Source of the DNA: an uncultured Gammaproteobacteria bacterium
Lineage (GTDB): Bacteria; Patescibacteriota; Patescibacteriia; UBA1558; S5-K13
Length of the DNA stretch: 64,000 nucleotides
Reading direction: 5' to 3'
Assembly (NCBI GenBank): GCA_964640635.1
Contig: CAZXFD010000002.1
Location: forward strand, 26,153-90,152
In this document: piece after piece, positions 857 to 39,906 of the stretch
Numbering within the stretch: position 1 is the first letter of the stretch
Layout of the letters: every line of letters begins with the position of its first letter
Notes under the pieces: model-generated
What the model was told of the DNA's origin: nothing
What the model saw: only the letters and a program-made list of their open reading frames with translations
The model's database searches: none
Position numbers and translations under genes: made by a program

Positions 857-1396
857 ATGAAAGAATTCATAAAAAAGCTATTTGCGTGCTTTTTTTGTTG
901 GCGTAGAGAACATATCACAAATGATGAATTGGCTGGATCACCCATTATCGTTGCCTTTTCATTTGGTGGAAGATTTTATGGAACTGGAAAAAGCAATAGA
1001 TTTTTAATCGATTTTGCCTCTAGCTTATTTGAACAATACAGAACGCCTATAATAGCCCAGTGGGAAATAGGTGAATATGTTAAAAACGGTATAATCCAAA
1101 CAATAAAAAAAAGCCGAGTTGCTGGTCAATATTTAGATACATATGAAGTTGCCTATCAAGCAACTGAAGTATGCGAGAAACTTGGAATTAAAAAAGTCCT
1201 TGTACTAGCCCATCCGCATCACACATTAAGATGCAAATGGACATTAGAAAAATTAGGATTAAAGGCCTTCTTGATAGACACTACCAACTGTCCATATGAT
1301 CCAAAATCAAATCAGACATGGACAAGAAATGCCTTAAAGTTTATACCGAGAGAAATCCTTGCCAGATTAATGTATCTGGTAAAAGGATATATATAA
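857..1396 (+). CDS. DUF218/YdcF-like protein (SanA/ElyC superfamily), function unknown
   Basis: 179-aa ORF with a strong RBS. SFGGRF and LVLAHPHHTLRC segments resemble YdcF/DUF218 conserved blocks. The call is tentative. Confidence 0.4.
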   Translation: MKEFIKKLFACFFCWRREHITNDELAGSPIIVAFSFGGRFYGTGKSNRFLIDFASSLFEQYRTPIIAQWEIGEYVKNGIIQTIKKSRVAGQYLDTYEVAYQATEVCEKLGIKKVLVLAHPHHTLRCKWTLEKLGLKAFLIDTTNCPYDPKSNQTWTRNALKFIPREILARLMYLVKGYI

Positions 1397-5631: not shown

Positions 5632-7317
5632 CTACATCTTATCCACTGTCTCAATTCCAAGAAGTTCTAATCCATTTTTTATTACCTGAGAAACACAGAA
5701 AACAAGTAAAATTTTGTTCTTCATTTCCTTTTCAGATCCTGATAAAACTCTACAATTATTATAAAATTCATTAAAAATCTTTGCCAACTCTATCAAATAA
5801 TTTGCTAAGTGACTTGGCCTATAACTCTCTGCAGATTTTATAATTATTTCCTTAAATAAGCTAATCTGTTTTATTAAATTAATTTCTTCTTTTGTGGTGA
5901 AGCTAAAATTTATATCAACATCTGGAATTAATTTATATTCTTTCTTTGCTTTCTCTAAAATACTACAACACCTGACAAATGTATATTGTAAATATACAGA
6001 ACTATCTCCATCAAAAGACAACATTTTAGACCAATCAAATATAACATTTCTTGCCCTGTCAGTTGATAAATCATTAAATATCACAGCACCTATTCCTATT
6101 TTTTTTGCAGTATCGTCAATATTTTTGACTTGAGATTTCTTTTCCTCTAGTATCTTGGTAGATAATTTTATTGATTCATCAAGAACTTCTTCAAGTGCAA
6201 TAGTCTTGCCATCGCGCGTAGACATCTTTCCATCTTTAAAAGCAAACATTCCAAATTCAACATGAACAAATCTATTTTTATTCATACCCATAAGATCAAG
6301 CACCCTAAACAATTGCTCAAAATGAAGTTTTTGATCTATCCCAACAACATACAAAAGCTTTTCTGGTTTATATTGCTCTAATCTATACAAAGCAGCTGCG
6401 AGATCTCTAAGATGATAACTACTCGTTCCATTTGATTTAATTGCAAAAAATGGTGGCATGCCATAGTTTTCTAAATCGACTATTAAAGCTCCTTCAGAAA
6501 CAACTGTTTGTGTTTTTTTCTTTAAAGTTTTCAAAGTGCTCTCAAGTTTTGAAATATAAAAAGCCTCTCCATCATAATGATCAAATTTTATCTTTAACAT
6601 CTTATAAATTTTATCAAACTCTTCTAAGCTTAATTTTCTGAACTCTTTCCATAGCTCTAGATTTTTTTTATCATTGTTCTCTAATTTCTGAAATTCATCT
6701 CTTGCTAGATCATCTAGTTTTGGATTGTCTTTTGCTTCTTGATGAAATTTCACATATAAAAATAATAGGTGTTTAATTGCGTCTTTTTTTAATTCCTTCA
6801 CATTGCCCCAATTTTTATAGGCATAAATTAATTTGCCAAATTGAGTTCCCCAATCTCCCAAATGATTTACAGAAATTGTTTTATAACCAAGGTTTTTGTA
6901 AATTTTATAAAGTGATCCGCCTATCACAGTGCTTCGCAGATGCCCTATTCCAAGTGGTTTTGCAATATTAGGACTAGAGATATCCATAACAACTGTTTTG
7001 TTTTTTCCTATATTTTGTTTTCCAAAAACATTTTTTTCTGTATAAATTTCTTTTAACAGCGTTTTTGCATATTTATTATAATCAATAAAAAAATTTAAAT
7101 ATGGGCCAGTTGCTTTAATTTCTTTCAAAAAAATAGGTTTTTTTATTTTCTGACATAATTCAATCGCAATTTCAGCTGGTGATTTTTTCATTGCTTTAGA
7201 AAGCTCAAAACAAGGAAAAGCAAAGTCACCCAATTCATTATTTGGTGGAAGCTCCACTGATGGATTTTTAATTCCAGAATATTGTTCTATTAATTTTTTT
7301 ATTTTTTCTTGAAACAT
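5632..7317 (-). CDS. argS: Arginine--tRNA ligase
   Basis: 561 aa with an N-terminal GDFAFP motif, a class I catalytic core (GHLRS) and a C-terminus ending in M, as is typical for ArgS. Confidence 0.9.
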   Translation of the reverse strand: MFQEKIKKLIEQYSGIKNPSVELPPNNELGDFAFPCFELSKAMKKSPAEIAIELCQKIKKPIFLKEIKATGPYLNFFIDYNKYAKTLLKEIYTEKNVFGKQNIGKNKTVVMDISSPNIAKPLGIGHLRSTVIGGSLYKIYKNLGYKTISVNHLGDWGTQFGKLIYAYKNWGNVKELKKDAIKHLLFLYVKFHQEAKDNPKLDDLARDEFQKLENNDKKNLELWKEFRKLSLEEFDKIYKMLKIKFDHYDGEAFYISKLESTLKTLKKKTQTVVSEGALIVDLENYGMPPFFAIKSNGTSSYHLRDLAAALYRLEQYKPEKLLYVVGIDQKLHFEQLFRVLDLMGMNKNRFVHVEFGMFAFKDGKMSTRDGKTIALEEVLDESIKLSTKILEEKKSQVKNIDDTAKKIGIGAVIFNDLSTDRARNVIFDWSKMLSFDGDSSVYLQYTFVRCCSILEKAKKEYKLIPDVDINFSFTTKEEINLIKQISLFKEIIIKSAESYRPSHLANYLIELAKIFNEFYNNCRVLSGSEKEMKNKILLVFCVSQVIKNGLELLGIETVDKM

Positions 7318-7411: not shown

Positions 7412-8578
7412 GAAATTAACAATGTGCTCCATCATTTGATCTACCTTTTTTTTCCAAGTATGTTCTTTTATAGCATCTAGTCTTGTTTCAATTTTCTCTG
7501 GGCTATTATTTAATTCTTCATTAATGCATGCATTAAATCTTTCAAAGTCATTAGCAACACTTACGACACTTCTAAATTGTTCTATACCCGGAGCATCTGT
7601 CGTAACAACTGGAATTCCACACGCCAAATATTCATATAATTTCATAGGACAGGTATATTTTATAAAATCATTTATATAGTGCGGAATTATTCCCACATCA
7701 AATCTACTTATATAATCCGGAGCCTCATTGTATTCTTTTGCTCCCAAAAGATAAATATTGGAAAATCTACGAAGTCTCTCTTCATCTTCTTTTCTCCAAA
7801 TAGGTCCAACAAGCACAATCGATTTATCTAAATTCTTTTTTGCAATATACTCAATCATGTCTAAATTAACCCTATTTTCTTGAATTATTCCCAAATAACC
7901 AATAATTGGTCTAGAAATCTTGGCTATATCATTATTTATTACCTTGTTTTTATTTGCATAATGAGCAAGATCAATTCCTTGAGTAATGTGATATATTTTA
8001 TCTGTTCTTGGATAAAAAATCTTTTCACTCTCTTCCGACAAAACAAAAATAATATTTGCTTTATCTCTTATTGTTTTATAGTTTTCTTCTAATTTTGTTT
8101 TTATATTTTTATAACTAGCATGTTCTGCCCAATTATCTACAGTATCAAAAACTGAGATGTCATATTCTATTTCATTAAAATATTCAACGTCAATAGGATA
8201 ATATGACCATAAAATAATATTTTTATAATTTTCTTTTTTTAAATATTCATCTATTTCTTTTAAATATTTTTTATGACCAAAAATATTTTGCACAGTTGAA
8301 TATACAAACACATTTTCTTCTGGACTATAAATCCTTGTAAAAGGTGATAATTTTATAGTTTTTCCTATATTATTTAAAAATATATTTTCCTTCCAATTAC
8401 GTAATGCTCTTTTTTTGGTTTGAGGAAGATAGTCAATTAGAAGTATTCTATTTACAAAATTATTAGATTTCAAAGAATTAAAAACTTGGAAGTTTCTATT
8501 ACTTATTCCTCTTTCCCAGTCTGTAAAACTAGACATAGAAAACATTACAATGTCATATTTCTTATCTTTTCTTATCAT
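7406..8578 (-). CDS. Glycosyltransferase family 1/4-like (GT-B fold)
   Basis: The C-terminal EYLACGIPVVTTDAPG block is typical of GT1/GT4 donor-binding domains. Its start overlaps the upstream gene by 4 nt (ATGA). Confidence 0.65.
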   Translation of the reverse strand: MIRKDKKYDIVMFSMSSFTDWERGISNRNFQVFNSLKSNNFVNRILLIDYLPQTKKRALRNWKENIFLNNIGKTIKLSPFTRIYSPEENVFVYSTVQNIFGHKKYLKEIDEYLKKENYKNIILWSYYPIDVEYFNEIEYDISVFDTVDNWAEHASYKNIKTKLEENYKTIRDKANIIFVLSEESEKIFYPRTDKIYHITQGIDLAHYANKNKVINNDIAKISRPIIGYLGIIQENRVNLDMIEYIAKKNLDKSIVLVGPIWRKEDEERLRRFSNIYLLGAKEYNEAPDYISRFDVGIIPHYINDFIKYTCPMKLYEYLACGIPVVTTDAPGIEQFRSVVSVANDFERFNACINEELNNSPEKIETRLDAIKEHTWKKKVDQMMEHIVNFK

Positions 8579-9699
8579 AAATTACTTTCTAATTTTTTAT
8601 AAATACCTTCCCACAAAAAACTATTTACTATTCTTTTATATGCATTTTCTCCTAATTCATTTCTAAATATAGGGTCATTCAATAAATACAAAATAGCATT
8701 CATTGCCTCTTCTTGATTATTTTCATCTATCAAAATCCCTGTCTTTCCATCTACAACAGCTTCAGCTCCTCCGCCAACCCTTGAAGCAATGCATGCTTTT
8801 TTAAATATACCAGCTTCAAGGTACACTATTCCAAAACCCTCTACATCTTCTTTACTTGTGCGACTTATCATTGCAAAAATATCTGATATAGCATAAAAAT
8901 ATGGAAGGTCTTCATCAACGACATTATCTAAAAATAAAATATTCTTTTCTAAATTTAAATCTTTTGCTTTTTGTTGCAAATATTGTAAATTTTCTCCACA
9001 CCCTATTATTAAATAAACCAAATCTTCTATATCTTTGTGGCGTCTTATCAAATTAATTGCATCAATAATAAGTTCATGATTTTTTCTTTTTACAACTCTG
9101 CCTACAGATAAGATGATTTTTTTATTTTTCAAATTATATTTATTTATAAGATTTTCTTTTTTGATTTCATCAATACGAAAAAAATCTTGACTAATACCTG
9201 GATAAAGTAATACTATTTTTTTAATTCGACCGGATAACTGGGTGAATCTATTCACCAATTCTAATGTTGTTTGACTATTTACAGTAATAAACTCTGCGTT
9301 TTGTAAAATTATTTTTGTAAGCACTTTTTTTCTACTACTGCTAGATGCTAACTTTATATCTAATCCATGAAGTGATACAAAATATGGAACTCTAAAAAAT
9401 ATTTTTAGTAAAAATGCACAAAAACCCAGTGGCAAAATATTGCCCACCCAAACTATTTCTATTTTTTCTTTTTTTGCTGTTTTTATAAGCTCAAAAAAAG
9501 ATTTAAGCCATTTTGGCCAAATAAATCTATATAATAGTTTTTTATATATAATCTTAAAACCTACCCCTCCACTTGGTTTTATATTAGACAAAACAACTAT
9601 TTTGTCTTTTGGGAACAACCTTGCTAGATTATAATAATAATTGCTTACTCCGCCTATATTTGGCCAGAAATCTAGGCTAATGAGAAGAGTTTTCTTCAT
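8575..9699 (-). CDS. Glycosyltransferase family 4
   Basis: EGFGIVYLEA (EX7E motif), GKTGIL, and an N-terminal DFWPNIGGVS like the GT4 N-domain. Confidence 0.8.
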   Translation of the reverse strand: MKKTLLISLDFWPNIGGVSNYYYNLARLFPKDKIVVLSNIKPSGGVGFKIIYKKLLYRFIWPKWLKSFFELIKTAKKEKIEIVWVGNILPLGFCAFLLKIFFRVPYFVSLHGLDIKLASSSSRKKVLTKIILQNAEFITVNSQTTLELVNRFTQLSGRIKKIVLLYPGISQDFFRIDEIKKENLINKYNLKNKKIILSVGRVVKRKNHELIIDAINLIRRHKDIEDLVYLIIGCGENLQYLQQKAKDLNLEKNILFLDNVVDEDLPYFYAISDIFAMISRTSKEDVEGFGIVYLEAGIFKKACIASRVGGGAEAVVDGKTGILIDENNQEEAMNAILYLLNDPIFRNELGENAYKRIVNSFLWEGIYKKLESNL

Positions 9700-9762
9700 T
9701 TGTATTAAAAAATTCTTTGTTAAAGACCTTTTTATTATATCATACCAAAAATCTTTCAGCTA

Positions 9763-9791
9763 TTGACAAATTATTTTTTTATTGTTAATAT
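9763..9791 (+). promoter_or_regulatory. Sigma70-like promoter (TTGACA, 17 nt, TAATAT) driving a non-coding transcript
   Basis: -35 at 9763-9768 and -10 at 9786-9791. No ORF with an RBS lies downstream before the terminator at 9999-10030. Confidence 0.4.
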
Positions 9792-9797
9792 GCATAT

Positions 9798-10030
9798 TAA
9801 TTAAGGTTCTTCCTCCTCCTTATTCTTAATTAGAGCCTAAATTAAAACAGGTCTTAGAACAAAAGGCCCAAAAGGCTGGGTATTGTCTATGACCGAGAGA
9901 AGCAACCAAGCTAAAATTTGCTGATATTGCGTTATTTTAATGCGATTAAAGCAATTTATGCTCAACCTCCTCCTTACTGCTTCGGCAACTTCTCGCGTGG
10001 GGTTCTAAATTAGAACCCCATTTTTTATTT
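9798..10030 (+). ncRNA. Candidate ~230-nt small RNA, promoter-to-terminator, with two CCUCCUCC(UU) anti-Shine-Dalgarno-like motifs
   Basis: The GC content is above the local background. There is no ORF longer than 22 codons and no RBS. CCUCCUCC occurs at 9812-9820 and 9967-9975. The transcript ends in a strong intrinsic terminator. Confidence 0.3.
9999..10030 (+). terminator. Strong intrinsic terminator (GGGGTTCTA-aat-TAGAACCCC then ATTTTTTATTT)
   Basis: Perfect 9-bp stem, 3-nt loop and a T-run. Confidence 0.7.
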
Positions 10031-10068
10031 GAAAAAATCTCGCGCATAAAGCGAGCTTTATACTTTTA

Positions 10069-10077
10069 TGATATAAT
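10069..10077 (+). promoter_or_regulatory. Extended -10 promoter element TGATATAAT only 6 nt upstream of the ATG (leaderless or near-leaderless mRNA)
   Basis: TGnTATAAT at 10069-10077 with the ATG at 10084. There is no room for an SD. A ctcgcgcataaagcgagc hairpin lies at the -35 position. Confidence 0.35.
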
Positions 10078-10083
10078 ATATAT

Positions 10084-11103
10084 ATGCAAAAAGCTTTATT
10101 ATACAAGAAAATAAAAAGTGGCGCTGTCCAATGTAGATTGTGCAATCATTTTTGTAAAATAGAAAATGCTTGTCTTGGTTTTTGTTGTACAAGAAAAAAT
10201 ATAGATGGTGACTTATATGTTCTCAATTACAACAAATTAATAGCAAAAAATGTCGACCCTATTGAAAAAAAACCACTCTTTCATTACATGCCATCTTCTC
10301 TTACTTATTCAATAGCTTGTATGGGTTGTAATTTAGCATGTTCCAATTGTCAAAACTGGCAAATATCACAAATAAATAAAATTGAAAAGCTTGATGAAGA
10401 ATTTCCAGGGGAAAATATTGAACCGTGTGATATTATTAATCTTGCAAAAAAAGAAAATTGCCCAACAATAGCATACACTTACAGCGAACCAACCATTTTT
10501 TTAGAAACAGCACTACCCATAATGAAGCTTGCACATACCAGTGGCCTCAAAAATATATGGGTTTCAAATGGATTTATGAGTAAAGAATGTCTTGATCTTA
10601 TATGTCCATATTTAGATGCCATAAATATAGATCTCAAATTTTTTAGTGAAGCAAAATACAAAAAAATAACAAACGCATCTTTGAAGCCAATACTAGATAA
10701 TCTAAAATATTTAAAATCAAAAAAAATATTTATAGAAATAACAACACTTCTTATTCCTGGAGAGACAAATACAAACAAACAATTGGAAAAAATAGCAAAA
10801 TTCATATACACAAATATTGGAAAAAATACCCCTTGGCACATATCCGCCTTTTCTCCAGAAATATCATTCAAACTACTTTCTAAAAAATCTAGTTCCATGA
10901 AAGAATTAGAATCCGCTTACCAAATAGGAAAAAATGCCGGATTAGAATTTGTATATCTTGGAAATATAGCCTCTGATACAAGAGAAAATACATATTGTCC
11001 CGCATGTGGATTTTTAAATATAGAAAGACAAGGATACATTATAACACGAGATGACAATAGTGGGCTTTGTCAAAACTGTAAATATAATTTAAACATCATA
11101 TAA
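10084..11103 (+). CDS. AmmeMemoRadiSam-system radical SAM enzyme
   Basis: VQCRLCNHFCKI...GFC N-terminal Cys motif, DPIEKKPLFHYMP, and a GCNLACSNCQNWQIS radical-SAM CxxxCxxC cluster. Together these match the family signature closely. Confidence 0.8.
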   Translation: MQKALLYKKIKSGAVQCRLCNHFCKIENACLGFCCTRKNIDGDLYVLNYNKLIAKNVDPIEKKPLFHYMPSSLTYSIACMGCNLACSNCQNWQISQINKIEKLDEEFPGENIEPCDIINLAKKENCPTIAYTYSEPTIFLETALPIMKLAHTSGLKNIWVSNGFMSKECLDLICPYLDAINIDLKFFSEAKYKKITNASLKPILDNLKYLKSKKIFIEITTLLIPGETNTNKQLEKIAKFIYTNIGKNTPWHISAFSPEISFKLLSKKSSSMKELESAYQIGKNAGLEFVYLGNIASDTRENTYCPACGFLNIERQGYIITRDDNSGLCQNCKYNLNII

Positions 11104-16727: not shown

Positions 16728-19700
16728 TTATTTACTTCCCCTTATTATAACTTCATGCATTGTATCATTTCCCACCATATAGGTATTTGTCTCTTTTGCT
16801 TCAAACTTGACCCCTGTATCTTTACTTAGTTTTTCAAGTTGTTTCATAATTATCTGATATGATGTTTGCTCTCTAAATTGAGCAAATATAGGAATTATAT
16901 TATCTTTTTCAATATAATTTACCTTGTATGCTTCTACAAAAGCTAATATTAATGATCCTCCCGCTCTAGAATTTCCATCTGAAGCAAGATCTGATACATA
17001 TACAATATTTTCCGAATCCTTATCGTCTTTGTCCATTTTACCTTCATAAGCAAGAATATAGCCGTGCATTTTTTTGTCTTCTCCGGTATATTTAAAACTC
17101 ATCTCTGGTCTATTTTTTATCATATTATTAACATCTTTTGCAATGAGGGCATTTTCCATATTATGCAAATATTGAATCAATTTTTGATTATCTTTATATG
17201 CCTTTCCCTCAATATACGCAACCTTTATTGAATCTTGAAATGTAAGACTACTAATACCCCTTGGTAACTTCAATTCTAATCTTTTTAAATTTATTTTTTT
17301 CTTTTCTTGCATACCAGTAACTCTTGATAAAATAATCCCTTCTTTTTCCTCCTTAGATATATCTAACAACATTGATTCACCAAAATTTACATTATCACTA
17401 TAACCAACCGGAGCCTCTGGTACGGTTGTGTTTGCTATTCTATCAAGAGATATATTTGCATCAGTATACCCAAGACCTACTAATACCTTATTTTCATCTA
17501 AATTATATTTTTTTGCGAATCTTCTTATATATTCTTTAAAAAAATTAGCGTATAGAATTTTTAATACCTCTGTATTATTTCTTTGTGATTTAAAATTAGG
17601 TGCAACCTCTATATTATCGCATGTAATTATGCTCTGTTTATCTATTAAAACATCGTCGCTTACAATATCATGCATATGGGCCTCGAATTTATTTAGTTGG
17701 GCCACTACTTCTAATATATTTTTTTCTATATCAATATTTTTTGTAAGGACACTTTGAGCAATAGTTCTCCAATTTTTTTGTTTATTATTATCGCTAGATT
17801 CGGTCAATCTTTGAATAGTAAATAAAGAACATATGGGATTGAATGTGTATACATTACTTTTTCCGCTTCCAAATGGCATACAACAAGAAGTATCATTTCC
17901 AGCAACCACTCCATTAGGGTCTGATTTTAAATTTATTTTTGCACGATACTCTTCAATTATTCTATCATCTTCAAGTCCACTGTTCTGATTATATATTATA
18001 TTTAATATCTGATCCTTAATACTTTCTAATACCTGGGCTTTGTCTTCTTCTATTTTTCCAGACTGAAGATAAGGAACAATATTAATTTTGTTTTCTTTAA
18101 AAATCTTTTGTAGTTCAGAAAATAATTTATCCGGATTTTTTGCTTCCCCTAGCACACCCTCTCTTCTTTTTCCGATTGCTTTTAATATTAATTCGTTTAA
18201 TTCCAAGCTTCCGTATTTACCGCTAGATATCATTAATTTATAATCTATTTCTAAAGGTTCAAATACTTGTAAATTATCATAATCCCCCTCCACAAGAGCA
18301 TCTCTTAAATCATCCGAGGATAAATCTAGGTGTGAAATTACTATATAATTTGATGGCTTTTTTCTATCATGAACCTCTCTTGGTGTATGACTATCTGATA
18401 ACTGCAAAAATCTTCCTGAATTTTTCCAAAACTCCATCACTTTTTGCATTTCAATATTAGGATGAAACGCGAGTTTTTCAATATAATTATATAAATTTAT
18501 TTTTCCAATACTCTTCAACTCTTTTAGCTGATCCAATATTTCTTTTCTATTTAAAATTTGACATAAATCATTATATTTCCTAAGCATTTTCCAAGAAGAA
18601 AATACATCTCCAACGCTTCGTATTTCTTTTAGTAATTTATCTAGAGTTGGCAAACCGTATTCTTTTGCTTGAGACAATGTTTCTTCTAAATTGGAATTAA
18701 TATTGCGAGAAATGCTATTTAATACATGATATGAGCTACCAATTTCATAAACAGCTGTATCATCTTTTATTTGTTTTAATATATTATTATAAAATTCATT
18801 TGCAGATAATCCAGAAACATTGTATAAGTCTATTATTTTCAAAAAATTATGAAGAGCATCATGCTTAGAAATATTGGGCCTTTCAATATAATTGAACATT
18901 TTAGAATAACCAAATATCTTAGCCCCTGTTTCAAAAGGAATTAATATATTTTGTTCATCTATCCAGTTTTCATGTTTTCTTTTCAGTTTGTCAAATATAT
19001 ATTGACTTTTCACCTCACTTCCCATTGTTCTTATCTTATCTAAATCATCTTTAATGAAATAGAGCTCCGATGGTAATAAATTTAAATTCTTTGCATCATC
19101 AAATATGTAATCGCAATCTTTTGAAAAAAATCCATGTCCATTATCAATGCTCTTAAAATAAGATTTTTCAATGCAATAATCTAAATCACCCTTAGATAAA
19201 ACCACATTAAACTCTTCTTTAATTTTTGAGGCTTTATCTATATATAGCAACAAACACCTTATCATACCCTCTTTAGCAGCCTCAATGACAAGCTCTTCTG
19301 ATACATTAAATTTATCTTTTATTAAAATACCTGCATCAAAGTTTCCCTCAGAAAATCTATTTACCATTCCTTCTTTTGCATATTGTTGTATTTTTGAAGA
19401 TGCAATCATTTCATCGCTAATATTATATTTCTCTATTATACTTATTGCATTATAAATCATTCTCGAAGCTACGGAGATTTTCGATATCGCTTGAACTACA
19501 GCATCCAAAATAGTTTCTTCATTTAGATGAAACGTGTCTATTATTTCCTGTACAAAATCACGCCTTAAATCATTCGATAGAGCCCACGCAATTACTTCTT
19601 TTGCGGCATCCGAAACAATTTCTTCATTTACATGAAACCTATTAATTAGCTCTATAGTCTCCTTTATTCCCTTTGTCCGAAGTAAATCTATTACTATTGG

Positions 19701-22493
19701 TAACATTAATTTTTGCGTTTCTTCAGATTCTAATACTTGGGGAGAAACTTTAAATATATCTATAAAAATTAAGGGGTCTTTTGTTTGTGCATTTTTTAAG
19801 CAACATGATAATCCATTTTGGATAGCAGTCTGAAAGTCTTGAGATTCAAAAAATTCATTAGGAAAATTATATTCCCTTTGTATATCAATTGCAGTAAATA
19901 CATCTACTAGGTTACACATTGGGGACAAGAGCGTTATCATTTTTAATTTTATTACATCTTGCACTTCTTGAGACTGCAATATATCACTCGACAAATTAAA
20001 TTCTTTTTTTAATTTTACTAAATTGTGAGTATCTAAATATACTGATGTATTGAGTATTCTAGCCTTAATAGCAAATTGTATTTCTTGGGACTGTAGAATA
20101 TCATCTGACGCTGATAATATTTGTCTTATATGAATTGCTCTATCTATTCTATTATCCGAAAACTCTGCTATTATTGCCGATTTTATAGCATTTATAATTT
20201 CTTGAGACTGCAATACATCCTCTGATACATAAAATTCTTCTTTTATTCTTAATATACCGTTTATATTTTTACTCAATAAAAACTGTAACATACATATTTT
20301 TACAGCGTCCTGCATTTCTTGAGACTGCAATACATCCTCTGATACATAAAATTCCATTTTTATATTTATTGCTTCATCTATGTCTCCGACAGAAATTTGT
20401 CTTATAATTTGTTCTTTGGCGGCTTCTTGAATCTCAGAAAATTTACAAATTCTCTCTACAGATGGTTCACTTTCTACATTATCATTTATTAACTCTTCAT
20501 CAATAAGGCCCTCTGCTTCTACTATAATAGGATCATCTATTACTATAAATCGTTTCTTAATTTTTATTGCTTCATATACTTTTCCTGATGATAAATATTG
20601 TATTATTCCTATTTTTACCGCATCTTGCATTTCTTGAGATTGTAATATCTGAAAAGAGAGATGAAATTTATCTTGTATGTTTATTGCCTCGTATAAGCCT
20701 CCCGATGACAAAAGGTGAATTATTACTAATTTTACACAATCATCCATATCATCTTTTGAAATGCCCACTTTTTCTTGAAGTTCTCTGGCTCTATATAAAT
20801 CTCGATGAGGATATAAAAAGCTACGTATTATTTTTTTTGCAATATTTTGAAAAACTTCTTCTGATATTCTAAGTTTTTCTTTAATTTTTATTGCGCTATC
20901 TATAGAATTATTGTGCATAAGACGTGATATTGCATTTTCTCCAGCATACTGCACTTCCTTAGAAAATAATATTTCATCCGTAATTTGAAATTTTTCAAAA
21001 AACCCAATTACTGTATCTATATAATATGAAGCTTCATTTAATAATCCTATCAATCCAATTTTTACGGCATCCTGCACCTCTTTAGAAAGTATCACCTCGC
21101 TAGAAACTTGAAACTTATCTATAATTTTGATTGTTTCATGTGTAAACTTCTTCGTAAGAGAATTTATTAACCCTTTTTTTATTGCATCATCAATTCCATC
21201 TGTTATTTCTATGTCAGTAGATAATTTAAATACACTTCTTAGTCTAATAACTAAATCTGAATTATAACCACTAGATAAAATATTTATTACATTTTGTTTT
21301 GCAAGCGATTGAAGATCTTCAGATAATATAACCTCCTCTGATATTTGAAATTTTTCTATAATTTGAAGGACTGTATTTACATAATTTGTTGACTTTCCAA
21401 GTAGGCTAATTATTGTTTGTTTTGCTGAATCTTGAATTTCTTTAGACTTTATTACTTCGTCTGGGATTTGAAATCTATTTACAAATTCTACTGCATGATC
21501 GACGCCATATGCACTAGATAACTTATTTGCCATTCCTTTTCTTGCAGCATCTTGAATTTCTTTAGACTTTATTACTTCTTCTGAGATTGGAAATTTTGTT
21601 ATAATTTCTAAAGCTCGAACAATGTTAAAATTCCAATTAGATAAACACATCATTATTGCTTGTTTTGTATATTTTAATATAGAATCTTTAGAGATACTTA
21701 ATTTTTCTAACAACTTCTCCAGATCATCTAAATTACTATAATATAAAGCATTAGCCATACCCTTATCCGCTGCATCTCTGAGCTTTTTAGATGTTAATAT
21801 TTTTTCTGATACATCAAACTCTTCTATAAGTTCTAGAATTTTATTTGCATCAGCCCCTACTGATAACTCGCTTATAATTTTATTAACCACAGCCTTTTGA
21901 ATTTTCTCTAAATATGTATTTTCTTGTATATTAAATTTCTTTTTTAGCTCTATTACACCGTGAACATAGTCCCCTTTACCAGTTTCAAGTGAATCTATAA
22001 TAGATTTTTGCGTGGCCTTTTGCATACTTGACTGTTTTATAACATCTTCTGAAATATTAAATTCTTCTTTAATTTTTATTGCATTTTCTAAATCATTATT
22101 CGACAAACGATTTATTATTTCTTTACTAGCCATGCTCTGTATTTCTTGAGATTCCAATACCTCTGGCGATATATTAAATTTTTCTTTTATATTTAAAGCA
22201 CCCCATATATATCCTTCCGATAAACAGTTTATTATTCCCTTTTTTGCAGCATCCTGAACCATTGGGAAATTAATTAGAGTTTCAGAAAAATTATTTTTTT
22301 CTAATATATCTATGGCATTTTTGTTTTCTCCCCAATCTGATAATTTTGAGATCATTTCTTCTAAATCTTCTTTTTGTTCTTCTGACAAACTTAAATATTC
22401 ATCTAATTCATAGAGGCTTTTAGGCGTATCATCTTTTTCTAAGTTTTTTAATTCTATGTCCTCAATATTTATTTGTTGTGGCTTTTCTAACAT
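16728..22493 (-). CDS. Giant (1,921 aa) cytoplasmic tandem-repeat protein of unknown function; ~25-30 copies of a 39-40-aa helical repeat plus a ~700-aa non-repetitive C-terminal region
   Basis: Repeat consensus roughly F-[NQ]-[IV]-S-E-[ED]-V-[IL]-x-S-[KQ]-E-[IM]-Q-D-A-x-K-x-G-[MI]-[IA]-N-x-L-S. DNA repeats with periods of 117 and 120 bp occur, e.g. 20198-20237 vs 20315-20356. There is no signal peptide. The C-terminal tail has a GNAT-like Rx(x)GG segment, which is weak evidence. Confidence 0.8.
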   Translation of the reverse strand: MLEKPQQINIEDIELKNLEKDDTPKSLYELDEYLSLSEEQKEDLEEMISKLSDWGENKNAIDILEKNNFSETLINFPMVQDAAKKGIINCLSEGYIWGALNIKEKFNISPEVLESQEIQSMASKEIINRLSNNDLENAIKIKEEFNISEDVIKQSSMQKATQKSIIDSLETGKGDYVHGVIELKKKFNIQENTYLEKIQKAVVNKIISELSVGADANKILELIEEFDVSEKILTSKKLRDAADKGMANALYYSNLDDLEKLLEKLSISKDSILKYTKQAIMMCLSNWNFNIVRALEIITKFPISEEVIKSKEIQDAARKGMANKLSSAYGVDHAVEFVNRFQIPDEVIKSKEIQDSAKQTIISLLGKSTNYVNTVLQIIEKFQISEEVILSEDLQSLAKQNVINILSSGYNSDLVIRLRSVFKLSTDIEITDGIDDAIKKGLINSLTKKFTHETIKIIDKFQVSSEVILSKEVQDAVKIGLIGLLNEASYYIDTVIGFFEKFQITDEILFSKEVQYAGENAISRLMHNNSIDSAIKIKEKLRISEEVFQNIAKKIIRSFLYPHRDLYRARELQEKVGISKDDMDDCVKLVIIHLLSSGGLYEAINIQDKFHLSFQILQSQEMQDAVKIGIIQYLSSGKVYEAIKIKKRFIVIDDPIIVEAEGLIDEELINDNVESEPSVERICKFSEIQEAAKEQIIRQISVGDIDEAINIKMEFYVSEDVLQSQEMQDAVKICMLQFLLSKNINGILRIKEEFYVSEDVLQSQEIINAIKSAIIAEFSDNRIDRAIHIRQILSASDDILQSQEIQFAIKARILNTSVYLDTHNLVKLKKEFNLSSDILQSQEVQDVIKLKMITLLSPMCNLVDVFTAIDIQREYNFPNEFFESQDFQTAIQNGLSCCLKNAQTKDPLIFIDIFKVSPQVLESEETQKLMLPIVIDLLRTKGIKETIELINRFHVNEEIVSDAAKEVIAWALSNDLRRDFVQEIIDTFHLNEETILDAVVQAISKISVASRMIYNAISIIEKYNISDEMIASSKIQQYAKEGMVNRFSEGNFDAGILIKDKFNVSEELVIEAAKEGMIRCLLLYIDKASKIKEEFNVVLSKGDLDYCIEKSYFKSIDNGHGFFSKDCDYIFDDAKNLNLLPSELYFIKDDLDKIRTMGSEVKSQYIFDKLKRKHENWIDEQNILIPFETGAKIFGYSKMFNYIERPNISKHDALHNFLKIIDLYNVSGLSANEFYNNILKQIKDDTAVYEIGSSYHVLNSISRNINSNLEETLSQAKEYGLPTLDKLLKEIRSVGDVFSSWKMLRKYNDLCQILNRKEILDQLKELKSIGKINLYNYIEKLAFHPNIEMQKVMEFWKNSGRFLQLSDSHTPREVHDRKKPSNYIVISHLDLSSDDLRDALVEGDYDNLQVFEPLEIDYKLMISSGKYGSLELNELILKAIGKRREGVLGEAKNPDKLFSELQKIFKENKINIVPYLQSGKIEEDKAQVLESIKDQILNIIYNQNSGLEDDRIIEEYRAKINLKSDPNGVVAGNDTSCCMPFGSGKSNVYTFNPICSLFTIQRLTESSDNNKQKNWRTIAQSVLTKNIDIEKNILEVVAQLNKFEAHMHDIVSDDVLIDKQSIITCDNIEVAPNFKSQRNNTEVLKILYANFFKEYIRRFAKKYNLDENKVLVGLGYTDANISLDRIANTTVPEAPVGYSDNVNFGESMLLDISKEEKEGIILSRVTGMQEKKKINLKRLELKLPRGISSLTFQDSIKVAYIEGKAYKDNQKLIQYLHNMENALIAKDVNNMIKNRPEMSFKYTGEDKKMHGYILAYEGKMDKDDKDSENIVYVSDLASDGNSRAGGSLILAFVEAYKVNYIEKDNIIPIFAQFREQTSYQIIMKQLEKLSKDTGVKFEAKETNTYMVGNDTMHEVIIRGSK

Positions 22494-26075: not shown

Positions 26076-26146
26076 TTTTTCGCCAGAGGCGAATCAGCCT
26101 TTGGCTGAGAAATTTACCTATCTCGCCAAAGCTTTAGCGAAGGCGG
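26076..26146. repeat. Diverged member of the GC-rich intergenic repeat family (ttttcgccagaggcgaatcagcctttggctgag...gcgaaggcggat)
   Basis: It shares ttttcCGCCAG...GCGgATCAGCCTTTGGCTGAag with the copies at 29013 and 39311 but lacks their central hairpin. It lies between the alpha and beta oxidoreductase genes. Confidence 0.5.
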
Positions 26147-27893: not shown

Positions 27894-29009
27894 TTATTTA
27901 TTTAAAGAGAGTACCATATTTTTTTCTTCATCACAGGACACGACAATGACTTTTAATCTATTAAAATGCTTATTACTCATTATCAAATCTCTTATATCAC
28001 TATTTCTCTCCCCTATTCCACCTGAGAAAACAACCGCATCAACATTATCTAACAATGTCATATATGAAGAAATATATCTTTGTATTCTATAAATAAACAT
28101 ATCCAAGGCTAATTTAGCCATTTTTTTGTTTTCTCTATTACCTATCACATTTGATTTGTATCCTGGAATTTTGTAAGCATTTAAAATCATAACATCACGA
28201 AGATCAGAAATTTGACTTATTCCTTTTATACCTGAATTAAAATTTAATTCATTGAAAATAGACTCAATATCATTTCCATATGATAATAAATATTTCACTA
28301 TAGAAGCGTCTATATCACCACATCGCGTCATCATCATAAGACCTGATAACGGAGAAAAACCAAGTGACGTATCAATAGCCTTGCCATTTTTTATAACTGA
28401 TATACTAGATCCCCCTCCCAAATGACAAGTTATGATATTTGTATTAGATATTTTTTTCTTTAATTCCTTAGATGCCTCAACAAGCATTCCTTGATGAGAA
28501 AACCCGTGAAAACCATATTTTCTTATTTCCTTATATTTATTTAAATATTTTTGAGATATAGGATAAGAGAAAACACGTTCTTCTAAATCACAAAAAAACA
28601 TTGTGTCAAATACTCCAATGTGTTTTGCCTTTTTCCAAATACCAATAGATGACTTTGCAACTGACAAATTAATAGGGTTGTGAAGTGGTGCTAAGTCATT
28701 ATATTTTGATATTTTAGAAATGATAGATGAATTCAATATAACTGGCTTTGTAAATTCTATTCCACCATGAACGATTCTATGAACTATTTTTTCTATATCT
28801 TCTTTTAGATTAATCTTCAAAAAATTATAAACAACGTCAAGCGCTTCTTTGTGTGATAAAATTTCTTGATTAGACAATAAACCATTTAAATTAATTATAG
28901 AATTATTACTTCCTATTTTTTCTATTAAGCCAAAATAAATCTGATTTAATTTTTTATCAAATAATTTAAACTTCAGTGATGTGCTCCCACTATTTAAAAC
29001 TAGTATCAT
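27894..29009 (-). CDS. ackA: Acetate (or propionate) kinase
   Basis: VLNSGSTSLKFKLF N-terminal ASKHA motif and the internal H..FHGFSHQ segment. Confidence 0.85.
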   Translation of the reverse strand: MILVLNSGSTSLKFKLFDKKLNQIYFGLIEKIGSNNSIINLNGLLSNQEILSHKEALDVVYNFLKINLKEDIEKIVHRIVHGGIEFTKPVILNSSIISKISKYNDLAPLHNPINLSVAKSSIGIWKKAKHIGVFDTMFFCDLEERVFSYPISQKYLNKYKEIRKYGFHGFSHQGMLVEASKELKKKISNTNIITCHLGGGSSISVIKNGKAIDTSLGFSPLSGLMMMTRCGDIDASIVKYLLSYGNDIESIFNELNFNSGIKGISQISDLRDVMILNAYKIPGYKSNVIGNRENKKMAKLALDMFIYRIQRYISSYMTLLDNVDAVVFSGGIGERNSDIRDLIMSNKHFNRLKVIVVSCDEEKNMVLSLNK

Positions 29010-29012
29010 TTG

Positions 29013-29095
29013 TTTAGTATTTAGTGTTTAGTATTTTCCGCCAGCCAGCCCCGCTACGCGAAGCATGACCGGGGAGGCGGATCAGCCTTTGGCTG
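29013..29095. repeat. GC-rich ~83-bp structured intergenic repeat (copy A), bounded by agtgtttag direct repeats
   Basis: About 96% identical to 39311-39392. It contains a ccccg-16nt-cgggg hairpin and a cagcc-ttt-ggctg hairpin. It lies between pduL and ackA on the strand opposite to both genes. Confidence 0.7.
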
Positions 29096-29129
29096 AAGTG
29101 TTTAAAAATTACTTATTTACATTAAACTG

Positions 29130-30827: not shown

Positions 30828-31331
30828 TCAATTCTTTAAAAACCACTGCATTGTATAACCATTTGGAGCGTCACTTACAAAGTCTTTTTTTGGACAAGAT
30901 CCAGAACCATGATTGCTGCTTTCTGTTTCAAAAGAAGATACTTGAAATATGGCAAAGCTTTCCTCACAACCATATTCTCCAGCATTAAACTTGTGATATC
31001 TATAATAATATTTATGATCATTTAATGGATCAAAAATAGGAGAATCAAAAATACCTTTTTCAAACAAATTATATAAAACAAATTTTGATTCGTTTTTTAG
31101 CTTATATCCATAGTCCCAAGCATCTAAACTAATATTATCTGGCAAAGCATTAAAATCTTGAACATACACACTTATAGCCATTTGTATAGTTGAAATATCT
31201 GTGCTTCTTCTAATATCTCTTATATGCTTCCATTGATTGGTCATATAAATACCCATAACAATAGACCAAAAAGCGATCATAAAAACTAAAAAAGTTGTAG
31301 TAAAAAATAAATTTATCTTTTTTTCTATCAT
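30828..31331 (-). CDS. Hypothetical N-terminally membrane-anchored protein
   Basis: 167 aa. The N-terminal hydrophobic helix FTTTFLVFMIAFWSIVMGIYM is followed by a soluble domain. Any pilin-like character is speculative. Confidence 0.5.
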   Translation of the reverse strand: MIEKKINLFFTTTFLVFMIAFWSIVMGIYMTNQWKHIRDIRRSTDISTIQMAISVYVQDFNALPDNISLDAWDYGYKLKNESKFVLYNLFEKGIFDSPIFDPLNDHKYYYRYHKFNAGEYGCEESFAIFQVSSFETESSNHGSGSCPKKDFVSDAPNGYTMQWFLKN

Positions 31332-31460
31332 GGTATTATTATATCTAAATATATCTCTAAATACAAAACCTCCTCCATAAAAATATTACGATACGAAAAA
31401 AACACGGCTCATTGTTATGAACCGTGTTTTATAAATACTGTTTTTTCTATAAGTGAATAA

Positions 31461-32105
31461 TTATTTTTTTTCTTCTGTCTTTTCTTCTGTCTTTTCTTCC
31501 TTAGGAGCTTCTGTGCTTACAAGAGTTTCTTCAACAACAACCTTTTCTTCTTCATAAGGAACTGCTGATGCAATTGCCTGATCTTCTGGATTTAATATCT
31601 TAATTCCCTTTGGAACCTTGATACTTGATACAAAAATAATATCGTTTATATTTTCAAGCATAGAAAGATCTATTTCTATTTCATGAAGCATGTCTTCTGG
31701 AAGACATTCAATTTCTATATGATCTATGTCTCTACTAAGAACAGCTCCAAGCTCTTTTACAGCCTTTGATTCCCCAATAAATTTCAAAGGAATTTCTGAC
31801 TTAAGTTTGTGTAACTTACTAAATTCATAAAAATCTGCATGTAAAATCTTATTTGTTCTTGGATCTCTAAAAACATCGTGAATAAAAACAGGAACTACTT
31901 TATCTTCTAAATTAATACTTATTATAGTATTTTCACCAGCATCAGAAAGTGATTTCAAAAAATCATGCATTTTGATCTTTATAGTCTTGGTTTCTTTCTG
32001 AGGTCCATATATAACTCCTGGCAAATATCCTTCTTCAATCAAATGTTTTGCCTTTTTATCTGTTTTAATGTCTCTTATTTCTGCTTTTAATGTTAGTTCT
32101 GTCAT
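31461..32105 (-). CDS. rplY: 50S ribosomal protein L25 / general stress protein Ctc
   Basis: bL25 N-terminal fold pattern (LKAEIRD...GYLPGVIYG) and a long-form C-terminal extension ending in KTEEKTEEKK repeats. Confidence 0.85.
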   Translation of the reverse strand: MTELTLKAEIRDIKTDKKAKHLIEEGYLPGVIYGPQKETKTIKIKMHDFLKSLSDAGENTIISINLEDKVVPVFIHDVFRDPRTNKILHADFYEFSKLHKLKSEIPLKFIGESKAVKELGAVLSRDIDHIEIECLPEDMLHEIEIDLSMLENINDIIFVSSIKVPKGIKILNPEDQAIASAVPYEEEKVVVEETLVSTEAPKEEKTEEKTEEKK

Positions 32106-35422: not shown

Positions 35423-36058
35423 TTAACTAAAGCTATTTAATTTGTGTTCCAAAATAGATTCAAAATAATGTCTCAACCATTTTTTTATTAATATCAAATC
35501 ACTAGTCTCTATATCTAATTTTAGCATGAGCTCAATGTTTTTTAAATAGTCATTTTCTGCAAATACACTTAATTCATTTCCATATTTTTCTATACCAAAA
35601 AAATTATTTGGCATAAATCCAAAATGCTTTAAAATAGAAAAAAAATAAACTATTTGAAGTTTTAATTTATCTAACAAATCCTTGTGAGAAATAAAATCCT
35701 CCAAAAAAACTATAGTATCGTTGTATAAATCTGTCTCCTCTAAATCTTGTTTTAAAAAGCCCGTTAATATTTCTGATACTTGTGAAAAAAACTTGAAATC
35801 TACATTATCAAAAAAACTCGCGAAATAGCTCTTCACGGTTTTAACTTGAGCTATTTTATCAATGTCATTGCCATGGGCCAACATAAAAATACACAAATTA
35901 CCAGGTATTAAAAATCCAGATAATTTACTCTTGGCAGATGCCACGGATTTTCCTACAGCTACAACAAGGCCTCGCTCGAAAGAAAATATATGATAAAGTC
36001 TGTCTTCATTTCTAAACTTTTTGGCAGATAAAATAATTCCTTGAGTTATGTATTCCAT
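35423..36058 (-). CDS. recO: DNA repair protein RecO
   Basis: The N-terminal OB-fold pattern (GIILSAKKFRNEDRLYHIFSFERGLVVAVGK) resembles RecO. Its length is right and the context is housekeeping. Confidence 0.55.
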   Translation of the reverse strand: MEYITQGIILSAKKFRNEDRLYHIFSFERGLVVAVGKSVASAKSKLSGFLIPGNLCIFMLAHGNDIDKIAQVKTVKSYFASFFDNVDFKFFSQVSEILTGFLKQDLEETDLYNDTIVFLEDFISHKDLLDKLKLQIVYFFSILKHFGFMPNNFFGIEKYGNELSVFAENDYLKNIELMLKLDIETSDLILIKKWLRHYFESILEHKLNSFS

Positions 36059-39088: not shown

Positions 39089-39310
39089 AAAATTAAAATA
39101 TAAGTGATTATTGGCTTATTTTACTATATTTAGAAATAAAATCAACTAAAACAACAGAGATCTAATATACTCAAAAACACCCCTATCTGGTCTCTTTACA
39201 TTTCTCGAAATAACTCGTGTTCTATTTCTCATCTCTTGCTTCATCCAGTCAAAATTTTGACATCTTGAATAGTTTAGCATTTGTTTTGATTCGTTTTTTT
39301 TCATACATTT

Positions 39311-39392
39311 AGTGTTTAGTCTTTTCCGCCAGCCAGCCCCGCTACGCGAAGCATGGCCGGGGAGGCGGATCAGCCTTGGGCTGAAGTGTTTA
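39311..39392. repeat. GC-rich ~82-bp structured intergenic repeat (copy B)
   Basis: Near-identical to 29013-29095, with 3-4 differences. It lies between the small merR-like gene and ileS. Confidence 0.7.
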
Positions 39393-39438
39393 GTAATTAG
39401 AACAAGTCTAAATCCTAATTACTAAAAACTAAAATCTT

Positions 39439-39663
39439 TTATTTATTTTTAAAATAATTTTTTATTTCTTGTATTGTCCACCTTTTTTGGGTTTGTAATT
39501 TTTCTATTTCTCTAACTTTTTGTAAGGCATTATTTTTTTCATATAAACGATACCCGCCTTGAGTATATGAGTCGGGTTTTAATAATCCTTCCTGAGTATA
39601 AAAATGAATGGTCGAAGGCAACCTATTTAATTCTACCGCTAGTTCTCCTATTTTTAATAACAT
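39439..39663 (-). CDS. MerR-family HTH-only transcriptional regulator (74 aa, no effector domain)
   Basis: LKIGELAVELNRLPSTIHFYTQEGLLKP...GGYRLY matches the MerR HTH consensus. The protein ends after the first coupling helix. Confidence 0.7.
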   Translation of the reverse strand: MLLKIGELAVELNRLPSTIHFYTQEGLLKPDSYTQGGYRLYEKNNALQKVREIEKLQTQKRWTIQEIKNYFKNK

Positions 39664-39679
39664 TATTTTAATTTCTCAG

Positions 39680-39695
39680 CTGCGTAGCTACGCAG
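39680..39695. promoter_or_regulatory. Perfect 16-bp palindrome CTGCGTAGCTACGCAG 17 nt upstream of the merR-like start, a candidate operator
   Basis: The sequence is its own reverse complement. Its position in the 5' region of a MerR-type gene suggests autoregulation. Confidence 0.4.
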
Positions 39696-39854
39696 TTAAT
39701 TGAGTAATTATGTAAATACTTAAAAACACTTGATTAACTATGAAACCACGAGACTAACAAGCTAACCACTTTTCCACAGTCCTCTGCATTAATTATATAG
39801 TAAAATTTATAAAGTGTGAAGTATAAAGTAATGCTTTATAGTTCATAGTTTAAT

Positions 39855-39890
39855 AAAACAAAAAACCCAGCTCTGAAATAGAACTGGGCT
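39855..39890 (-). terminator. Intrinsic terminator for the 39907-40419 gene (cccag...ctggg hairpin, T-run on the minus strand)
   Basis: The hairpin 39866-39888 is preceded on the + strand by aaaacaaaaaa, which gives a T-run on the minus strand. Confidence 0.45.
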
Positions 39891-39906
39891 CTTTAAAAAA
39901 TAAACT

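Follow-up and report, generated by a model that had tools for sequence, protein, structure and literature searches.

A predicted structured non-coding RNA gene with an anti-Shine-Dalgarno-like hairpin loop in a narrow clade of Patescibacteria

Some bacterial regulatory RNAs pair with the Shine-Dalgarno (SD) regions of messengers by means of unpaired pyrimidine-rich motifs, as LhrC does with redundant CU-rich sites (PMC4132741) and RsaE/RoxS with C-rich ones (PMC4409812). No regulatory RNA of Patescibacteria, the Candidate Phyla Radiation (CPR), was found in the literature, nor was anything directly relevant on leaderless translation in CPR bacteria; part of the Parcubacteria lack the anti-SD sequence CCUCCU in 16S rRNA (PMC9297842). 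The locus described here is a candidate RNA gene of ~230 nt, located between two divergent operons in a 64-kb stretch of contig CAZXFD010000002.1, hereafter the window, and marked by a CU-rich sequence in a hairpin loop. A first-pass annotation of the window had proposed at this site a discrete non-coding gene, running from promoter to terminator. The proposal is supported by a fold conserved in related genomes, by the lack of conserved open reading frames (ORFs), and by a distinct promoter found downstream. The RNA is very probably a separate, conserved, non-coding and structured unit, which obtains no credible score in Rfam. Its features, in window coordinates, are the following.

9797..10029, plus strand, predicted non-coding RNA of ~230 nt, made of the domains H1-H2-H3-terminator
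9763..9791, plus strand, promoter of the RNA: TTGACA at 9763-9768, 17-nt spacer, TG at 9783-9784, TAATAT at 9786-9791
9802..9840, plus strand, H1 hairpin: 9-position stem 9802-9810/9832-9840, 21-nt loop 9811-9831
9812..9822, plus strand, motif 1, CCUCCUCCUUA, exact match in the H1 loop
9850..9894, plus strand, H2 hairpin: outer stem GGUCUUAGA/UCUAUGACC, inner stem GCCCA/UGGGU, apical loop AAAGGY at 9871-9876
9897..9994, plus strand, H3 domain: closing stem GAGAAG (9897-9902)/CUUCUC (9989-9994), variable interior
9966..9976, plus strand, motif 2, CCUCCUCCUUA, on the 3' side of H3, probability of being unpaired 0.99
9997..10027, plus strand, intrinsic terminator: stem-loop 9997-10021 of 11 pairs, loop AAT, T-run

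The gap hosting the RNA spans positions 9700-10083, and measures 384 bp as initially annotated. It is bounded to the left by a GT4 glycosyltransferase gene (8575-9699, minus strand), and to the right by an AmmeMemoRadiSam-type radical-SAM gene (10084-11103, plus strand). The GC content is 0.39-0.41 within the RNA interval, against 0.18-0.30 in the flanks and 0.31 in the entire window, in keeping with the GC-rich interval noted earlier. Homologous regions were fetched by using radical-SAM and GT4 protein homologs as anchors. Homologous RNAs were found between the same two genes in five related metagenomic genomes.

L116, 2174-2403, minus strand, RNA homolog of the closest relative (GT4 protein 90% identical to that of the window)
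L030, 13-232, plus strand, RNA homolog
L032, 2741-2956, plus strand, RNA homolog
L118, 459-675, minus strand, RNA homolog
L119, 2188-2403, minus strand, RNA homolog

The plus strand of the window RNA folds with an energy of -68.6 kcal/mol (z = -5.5 relative to shuffled sequences), while the fold of the minus strand is weaker (z = -2.6). Three of the six RNAs were tested by shuffling, and the z values of the two homologs are -4.2 (L030) and -6.3 (L032). The same four hairpins, H1-H2-H3-terminator, are featured by the minimum-free-energy folds of all six RNAs. Alignment of the raw RNAs by MAFFT and RNAalifold misplaced H1 and H3, and was replaced by a structural alignment made by hand (A7), each row of which was checked against its sequence and run through MAFFT with N padding. 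Pairing was scored at 40 pairs distributed in 5 helices. Paired residues occupy 94.5% of the 237 cells, versus 85.4 +/- 1.2% in shuffles (a control that ignores phylogeny; 0 of 500 reach the observed value) and 31-50% in slid registers. Both residues are changed in 15 of the 40 pairs, versus 7.2 +/- 1.7 in shuffles, none of which reaches 15 in 500 trials, and 0-4 in slid registers. The covariation score is 0.402, against 0.231 in shuffled alignments.

Changes on both sides were observed in all domains. In the H1 stem, the most informative helix, they involve 6 of the 9 pairs among the six genomes, and the alternative stems include GGUUCU/AGAGCC, GGGCUUC/GAAGCCC and GGCGUG/CACGCC; the H1 loop varies in length from 19 to 26 nt. 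The two helices of H2 are 92.6% and 100% paired, with 3 pairs changed on both sides, and their apical loop reads AAAGGC or AAAGGU in all six RNAs. Four of the six pairs of the H3 closing stem are changed on both sides. The H3 interior, which includes a long inner hairpin as well as a small one with UUCG (9978-9987), differs between the group of the window and L116 and the group of L030 and L032. Pairing in the UUCG hairpin, as read from the alignment, is kept in L116 through two double changes. Compensatory changes in five genomes and the lack of Rfam matches make a structured RNA of another class, which the first-pass annotation had mentioned as a fallback, the best fit to the data.

The decanucleotide UCCUCCUUAU (9814-9823), the core of motif 1, is invariant in the six RNAs, and is found inside every H1 loop, although the surrounding stem is almost wholly substituted. 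It is predicted to be unpaired in all six, with mean probabilities of 0.76-0.99, and is regarded as a putative seed or recognition element. The octamer CCUCCUUA, also contained in the H1 loop, is identical to the 3'-terminal 8 nt of Escherichia coli 16S rRNA. Two exact copies of CCTCCTCCTTA are present, at 9812-9822 and 9966-9976; allowing one mismatch, 3 matches were found, versus 0.65 expected. The first-pass annotation had rightly reported twin motifs, but as a feature of the RNA family the pair does not hold, since only the first motif is conserved. The counterpart of motif 2 reads CCCUCUCCUUAAG in L116, where it is partly paired (probability of being unpaired 0.49), and CACCCCCUAAC in L030, and is absent from L032, L118 and L119. 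Among the genomes compared, exact duplication of the motif is thus specific to the window genome.

The promoter assigned to the RNA is the best site in a scan of 2 kb, with 10 of 12 matches to consensus. The TTGACA-17-TAATAT arrangement initially described was retrieved, and a TG extension can be added to it. Promoter-like sites in general are not above chance in the 2-kb scan (9 versus 11.9 expected). Perfect TTGACA-N16-18-TAnnnT sites number 6 in 64 kb, where ~5 are expected; 3 of the 6 are intergenic, and face a gene or the small RNA. Transcription is predicted to start at ~9796-9799. The promoter is conserved in L116, L032, L118 and L119, as TTGACA followed by a TGnTA(A/G)T(A/G)T -10 region; the L030 contig starts inside the -10 region. 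At the opposite end, the terminator stem (9997-10021) is made of 11 pairs, 10 Watson-Crick and one G-U, closed by the loop AAT and followed by TTTTTTATTT. A terminator with a T-run had been correctly recognized; its description as a perfect 9-bp stem has been revised. Terminator-like sites exceed expectation in the scan (7 versus 0.5). All six RNAs keep the terminator hairpin and the T-run; 2 of the terminator pairs differ at both positions, and 5 at a single one.

Two additional promoter elements are found next to the RNA.

9734..9742, minus strand, extended -10 of the GT4 operon, TGaTATAAT, read directly from the sequence
10069..10086, plus strand, promoter of the radical-SAM gene: TG at 10069-10070, TATAAT at 10072-10077, 6 nt, ATG at 10084

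The GT4 -10 region lies back to back with the promoter of the RNA, and the block is conserved in L116, L032, L118 and L119. The extended -10 of the radical-SAM gene also reads TGaTATAAT (10069-10077), and the arrangement TATAAT-6 nt-ATG is kept in the window, L030, L034, L038, L089 and L120. Its geometry is the one expected of a leaderless mRNA. In L038, L089 and L120 the radical-SAM promoter is present, and the RNA upstream is absent. As the radical-SAM gene has a promoter of its own, found also in relatives devoid of the RNA, the latter is best viewed as a separate gene, not as a leader, and the two -10 regions would mark the boundaries of the RNA gene. A second hairpin, CTCGCGCATAAAGCGAG, is located at 10039-10055, and is accompanied by a T-run on the minus strand. 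It resembles a minus-strand terminator facing the radical-SAM gene, and was found in the window and L116 only, being absent from L030, L032, L118 and L119.

The earlier statement that no ORF exceeds 22 codons is correct for ATG starts, the longest ATG ORF measuring 22 codons, but not for TTG starts, as TTG ORFs of 31 (plus strand) and 42 codons (minus strand) exist. No ORF is conserved on either strand: those of L030 and L032 differ from the window's in frame, length and sequence. The minus-strand ones, of 42, 39 and 31 codons, agree neither in frame nor in sequence. A conserved small ORF, which the first-pass annotation had named as contrary evidence, was therefore not found.

Rfam 15 covariance models gave no matches at gathering score in the whole window, hence no known leader could be identified. 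Within 9650-10150, at E values up to 10, the best E value (0.043) was obtained by Trp_leader, with 22.1 bits versus a gathering score of 41, and the highest bit score (24.8) by HPnc0260, whose gathering score is 59. Both fall downstream of the RNA (10012-10136), which is itself matched only by rliD, with 9.8 bits, far below the gathering score. Nothing relevant was found in L030 and L032 at E values up to 1. RNase P, the signal recognition particle (SRP) RNA, tmRNA and the SAM riboswitch, which had not been recognized by eye, likewise gave no Rfam match at gathering score, and no tmRNA was found by ARAGORN. No matches to RF00013 or 6S-Flavo, to small-subunit rRNA models, or to models of the RF01820 (RsaE) type were found.

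The RNA has a limited distribution. A profile of the six RNAs (nhmmer) detected no further copy in 690 kb of related DNA, and a single copy in the window. Searches for the core pattern gave 0 matches in a scan of metagenomes from JGI and 0 in two scans of viral contigs. The twin-motif pattern (CCTCCTCCTTA, 128-158 nt, CCTCCTCCTTA) was found at 26 loci of unrelated phyla in a scan of GTDB species genomes. These share only the motif itself with the RNA by blastn, and several reside in regularly spaced repeat arrays; the CPR loci L018 and L025 were inspected, and are not homologs. Eighty metagenome loci retrieved by the radical-SAM protein (L036-L115) contain no RNA detectable by blastn or nhmmer, and the closest of them have short gaps or different upstream genes. 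Closer relatives of the operon, L038 and L089 among these loci and L120-L122 besides, have short gaps and no RNA, as do relatives without the GT4 neighbour. Because the profile, JGI, viral and GTDB scans retrieved no other homolog, the family appears to be confined to a narrow clade of Patescibacteria.

Different RNAs may occupy the same position in more distant genomes. L033 and L034, whose radical-SAM proteins are 75% and 72% identical, respectively, to that of the window, keep the GT4/radical-SAM synteny, and in each the gap contains a different, strongly folding RNA, provided with its own TTGACA-17-TATAAT promoter and terminator, and exposing CU-rich stretches.

L033, 2789-2950, gap RNA; unit with promoter 2756-2950; z = -6.65, unpaired ACCUCCCCUUCCC
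L034, 2544-2776, gap RNA; unit with promoter 2508-2776; z = -7.9, hairpin CUCGC-UCCUCCUU-GCGAG

In L034 an apparent second promoter-to-terminator unit follows in tandem, at 2777-2955. The two gap RNAs share no sequence similarity with the window RNA by blastn or by the nhmmer profile, and their architectures differ. They may be homologs which diverged fast, or independent occupants of the gap.

What the RNA does can be proposed with less assurance. An independently transcribed, Rho-independently terminated, structured non-coding RNA gene of ~230 nt, restricted to a narrow clade and acting in trans with a CU-rich seed, is the favoured reading, to which a little under an even chance is given. 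The mechanism itself, that of a trans-acting riboregulator with the H1 loop as seed, is the simplest one, but rather less likely than not. Pairing of the CU-rich loop would involve purine-rich sites resembling GGAGG in only a few mRNAs, in the way LhrC and RsaE/RoxS employ their CU-rich or C-rich loops, and the second CCUCCUCCUUA copy would be a recent second seed, peculiar to this genome. Any targets should be few and specific, and a general action on ribosome-binding sites is unlikely, since the genome barely uses SD sequences.

The following data weigh against the proposal. Promoter and terminator of the RNA are predictions based on sequence. The comparative set comprises six RNAs from about four lineages, aligned manually so as to match the structure. 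Both the near-consensus promoter and the invariant AAAGGY loop would suit a protein-binding or housekeeping RNA just as well. A clear SD sequence, GGGAGGAAUAG-AUG, was found at about 1 in 33 gene starts of the window (gene 857..1396), and GGAGG, which occurs 50 times versus 39 expected, is not concentrated at gene starts. The target search was limited to the 64-kb window, where both motif regions were compared by RNAduplex to 33 initiation regions. The best duplex (-22.1 kcal/mol) is formed by motif 2 with UAUGGAGGAGGUU (31369-31381, minus strand); it falls within the top 1% of the background, and hence is not above it. No site within one mismatch of AUAAGGAGGA was found near any start codon of the window, and no convincing complementary site at its translation starts. 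The UAUGGAGGAGGUU site, which includes at 31369-31376 the only other GGAGGAGG in the window, is a perfect 10-bp complement to motif 2 (AACCUCCUCC). It is flanked by the L25 gene terminator on one side and by the likely promoter of 30828..31331 on the other, just upstream of the likely -35 of this neighbouring gene, and because of this position it is unlikely to be an mRNA target. As read by eye, the site could start a tiny ORF (MEEVLYLEIYLDIIIP).

The idea, put forward in the first-pass annotation, that twin anti-SD motifs sequester SD regions finds only partial support; general SD sequestration by the RNA is doubtful, because the genome almost never uses SD sequences. Most regions upstream of genes are A/T-rich, and several contain a -10-like hexamer beginning 6-12 nt before the start codon, which suggests that leaderless or SD-independent initiation is widespread in this genome. 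The 5' regions of the minus-strand genes 27894..29009, 31461..32105, 35423..36058 and 5632..7317 end in short tandem CUAA/CUAAU repeats immediately before ATG, as in AGCUAAAAGCUAAUAGCUAACAGCUAAUACA-AUG and CUAAUUUCCUAAUUUCCUAAUCCUACUAAUUUCCUAAUU; the repeats may be a feature of SD-independent initiation or of the untranslated region (UTR).

The main rival to the base-pairing riboregulator is a protein-binding or decoy RNA, in which UCCUCCUUAU and AAAGGY would be recognized by proteins, and would not serve as antisense seeds. In one version the H1 loop imitates the 16S 3' tail, and titrates one of the proteins usually bound to that tail (bS21-type, S1, or the RNases involved in 3'-end maturation); in the other it binds a pyrimidine-binding RNA chaperone. 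Two invariant loops displayed on covarying helices and a near-consensus promoter suit such a role, as does the failure to find an mRNA target within the 64-kb window of an SD-poor genome. In Bacteroidia, which are also SD-blind, the anti-SD tail is held by bS21, bS18 and bS6 (PMC7797042, PMC9976891). No partner protein is evident, however, among the products of the neighbouring genes, each RNA carries one conserved copy of the motif, in contrast to the many found in sponges such as CsrB, and the case is argued purely by inference. A protein-binding or decoy role is on the whole unlikely. A bolder variant, set in a lineage that has given up SD-led initiation, considers the RNA as a mimic of the 16S 3' tail, serving either as decoy for tail-binding or tail-processing proteins, or as anti-SD sequence supplied in trans to the few SD-bearing messages, with the gap RNAs of L033 and L034 as fast-evolving versions of the same device; its chances are slim.

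That the RNA controls the radical-SAM operon in cis, as a leader, riboswitch or attenuator starting at 9797 and using the terminator (9997-10021) as a regulated switch, is very improbable. The layout is admittedly that of a classic attenuator, a promoter being followed by ~200 nt of structured RNA, a terminator, and 56 nt to the ATG. In the window genome the 3' arm of the terminator is duplicated by the heptamer UUAGAAC at 9854-9860, but the anti-terminator pairing this would allow is kept in neither L030 nor L032, and the candidate was rejected. Against a leader are also the extended -10 placed exactly 6 nt before the radical-SAM ATG, which is conserved with and without the RNA, the lack of an SD sequence in the radical-SAM gene that CCUCC could sequester, the lack of matches to Rfam riboswitches or leaders, and the short gaps, with no RNA, found in the closer operon relatives (L038, L089, L120-L122).

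Equally poor are the prospects of a relic or repeat-like element, GC-rich and non-functional, caught by chance between sequences that resemble a promoter and a terminator. Further structured, GC-rich elements are found between genes in this genome, and promoter-like sites are common in AT-rich DNA; the RNA, however, is single-copy in the window and in the related DNA (690 kb), occupies a syntenic position, and keeps its pairing through 15 double substitutions, with invariant loop motifs. A divergent housekeeping RNA (6S, SRP, RNase P, tmRNA), missed by covariance models in CPR bacteria, is hardly to be expected. The strong promoter, the small genome, in which few non-coding RNAs are expected, and a length of ~230 nt, close to that of 6S RNA, would agree with it. 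Yet nothing reaches the gathering score in the window or in the homologs, ARAGORN found no tmRNA, and the RNA is restricted to a narrow clade, both closer and more distant relatives being devoid of it. Its structure, moreover, is made of four tandem hairpins supported by covariation, with no 5'-3' closing stem, unlike the closed rod with a central bubble of 6S RNA. Least credible of all is a small-protein gene or type I toxin-antitoxin pair, in which the plus-strand RNA would act as antitoxin and fully overlap a minus-strand ORF of 42 codons (9837-9965) featuring a hydrophobic stretch and a TTG start that overlaps the last base of GGAGGAGG, because this ORF changes in frame, length and sequence in L030 and L032, the SD-like GGAGGAGG runs into the TTG with no spacer, no minus-strand promoter is found in the stretch that separates this ORF from the radical-SAM gene, folding of the minus strand is weaker (z = -2.6), and substitutions follow base pairing, not codons.

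Genes in the neighbourhood of the RNA encode glycosyltransferases, ArgRS and AmmeMemoRadiSam proteins. The named homologs of the flanking proteins are from Patescibacteria/CPR, and an identical locus is present in three Logan contigs. ArgRS (5632-7317, minus strand) shows at most 57% identity to proteins from outside the immediate CPR clade, and there its named homologs are all from DPANN archaea (Nanoarchaeota, Woesearchaeota), which suggests an archaeal-type or horizontally shared enzyme.

Other features were noted elsewhere in the window. A GC-rich structured element with the core CAGCCMAAGGCTGATYCGCCTC is present in three minus-strand copies (26086-26107, 29074-29095 and 39362-39383), where 0 are expected. 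One copy precedes the acetate kinase gene; there, the region 29010-29100 (minus strand) adopts a fold of two hairpins (z = -3.6), after which ACUAAA repeats extend to the ATG. The element matches no Rfam family, and could be a repeat similar to repetitive extragenic palindromes (REP) or miniature inverted-repeat transposable elements (MITE), or else a 5'-UTR element. One copy falls in a gap of 818 nt (39089-39906) with no ORF of 100 aa or more, in which a small ORF similar to MerR-like helix-turn-helix proteins was read by eye on the minus strand. Two giant ORFs lie on the minus strand, one of at least 6693 aa (43896-63977), which ends 23 nt from the window edge, so that the gene may continue past it, the other of 1921 aa (16728-22493).

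With its ends and fold defined, two of its loops invariant, and covariation in its favour, the RNA is a clean small RNA candidate, and could seed a new RNA family. CPR bacteria are mostly uncultivated and have tiny genomes, and metatranscriptomes could be searched for the RNA. That a genome poor in SD sequences displays an anti-SD-like loop is odd, and offers a handle on initiation and regulation in bacteria which are SD-independent and rich in leaderless messengers. The reach of the finding is limited, as the family is present in a handful of closely related metagenomic genomes, and the organism cannot yet be manipulated.

Among known systems, the 16S rRNA 3' tail, with the anti-SD sequence ...CACCUCCUUA-3', has the octamer CCUCCUUA in common with the H1 loop. 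In the window RNA, in contrast, the motif is internal, in a hairpin loop and not at a 3' end, and no similarity to h44/h45 is found. The class of RNAs with CU- or C-rich seeds is closer. The window RNA shares with it a stand-alone non-coding gene, as predicted, and a conserved C/U-rich unpaired motif; seeds are redundant in LhrC and RsaE, and the window RNA has two copies, the second of which is degenerate or absent in the five homologs. The LhrC family of Listeria monocytogenes (LhrC1-5, Rli22, Rli33-1) similarly consists of stand-alone genes with their own promoter and intrinsic terminator, and exposes CU-rich motifs in hairpin loops and single-stranded stretches (PMC4132741). An LhrC RNA may carry more than one redundant motif (PMC4132741), as the window RNA does with its two copies. 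LhrC RNAs, however, are about half the size, have a UCCC core, and reside in SD-heavy Firmicutes; the window RNA shows no homology to them in sequence or structure, has one conserved motif, and is found where SD-type targets are scarce. RsaE/RoxS are also trans-acting, and feature C-rich unpaired motifs duplicated within one RNA (PMC4409812, PMC6158497). RsaE differs in measuring ~100 nt, in having a CCCC motif, and in being conserved across Firmicutes, whereas the window RNA is found in few CPR genomes. The window RNA is best filed as a new narrow-clade small RNA family, of a known general kind but outside the known Firmicutes families.

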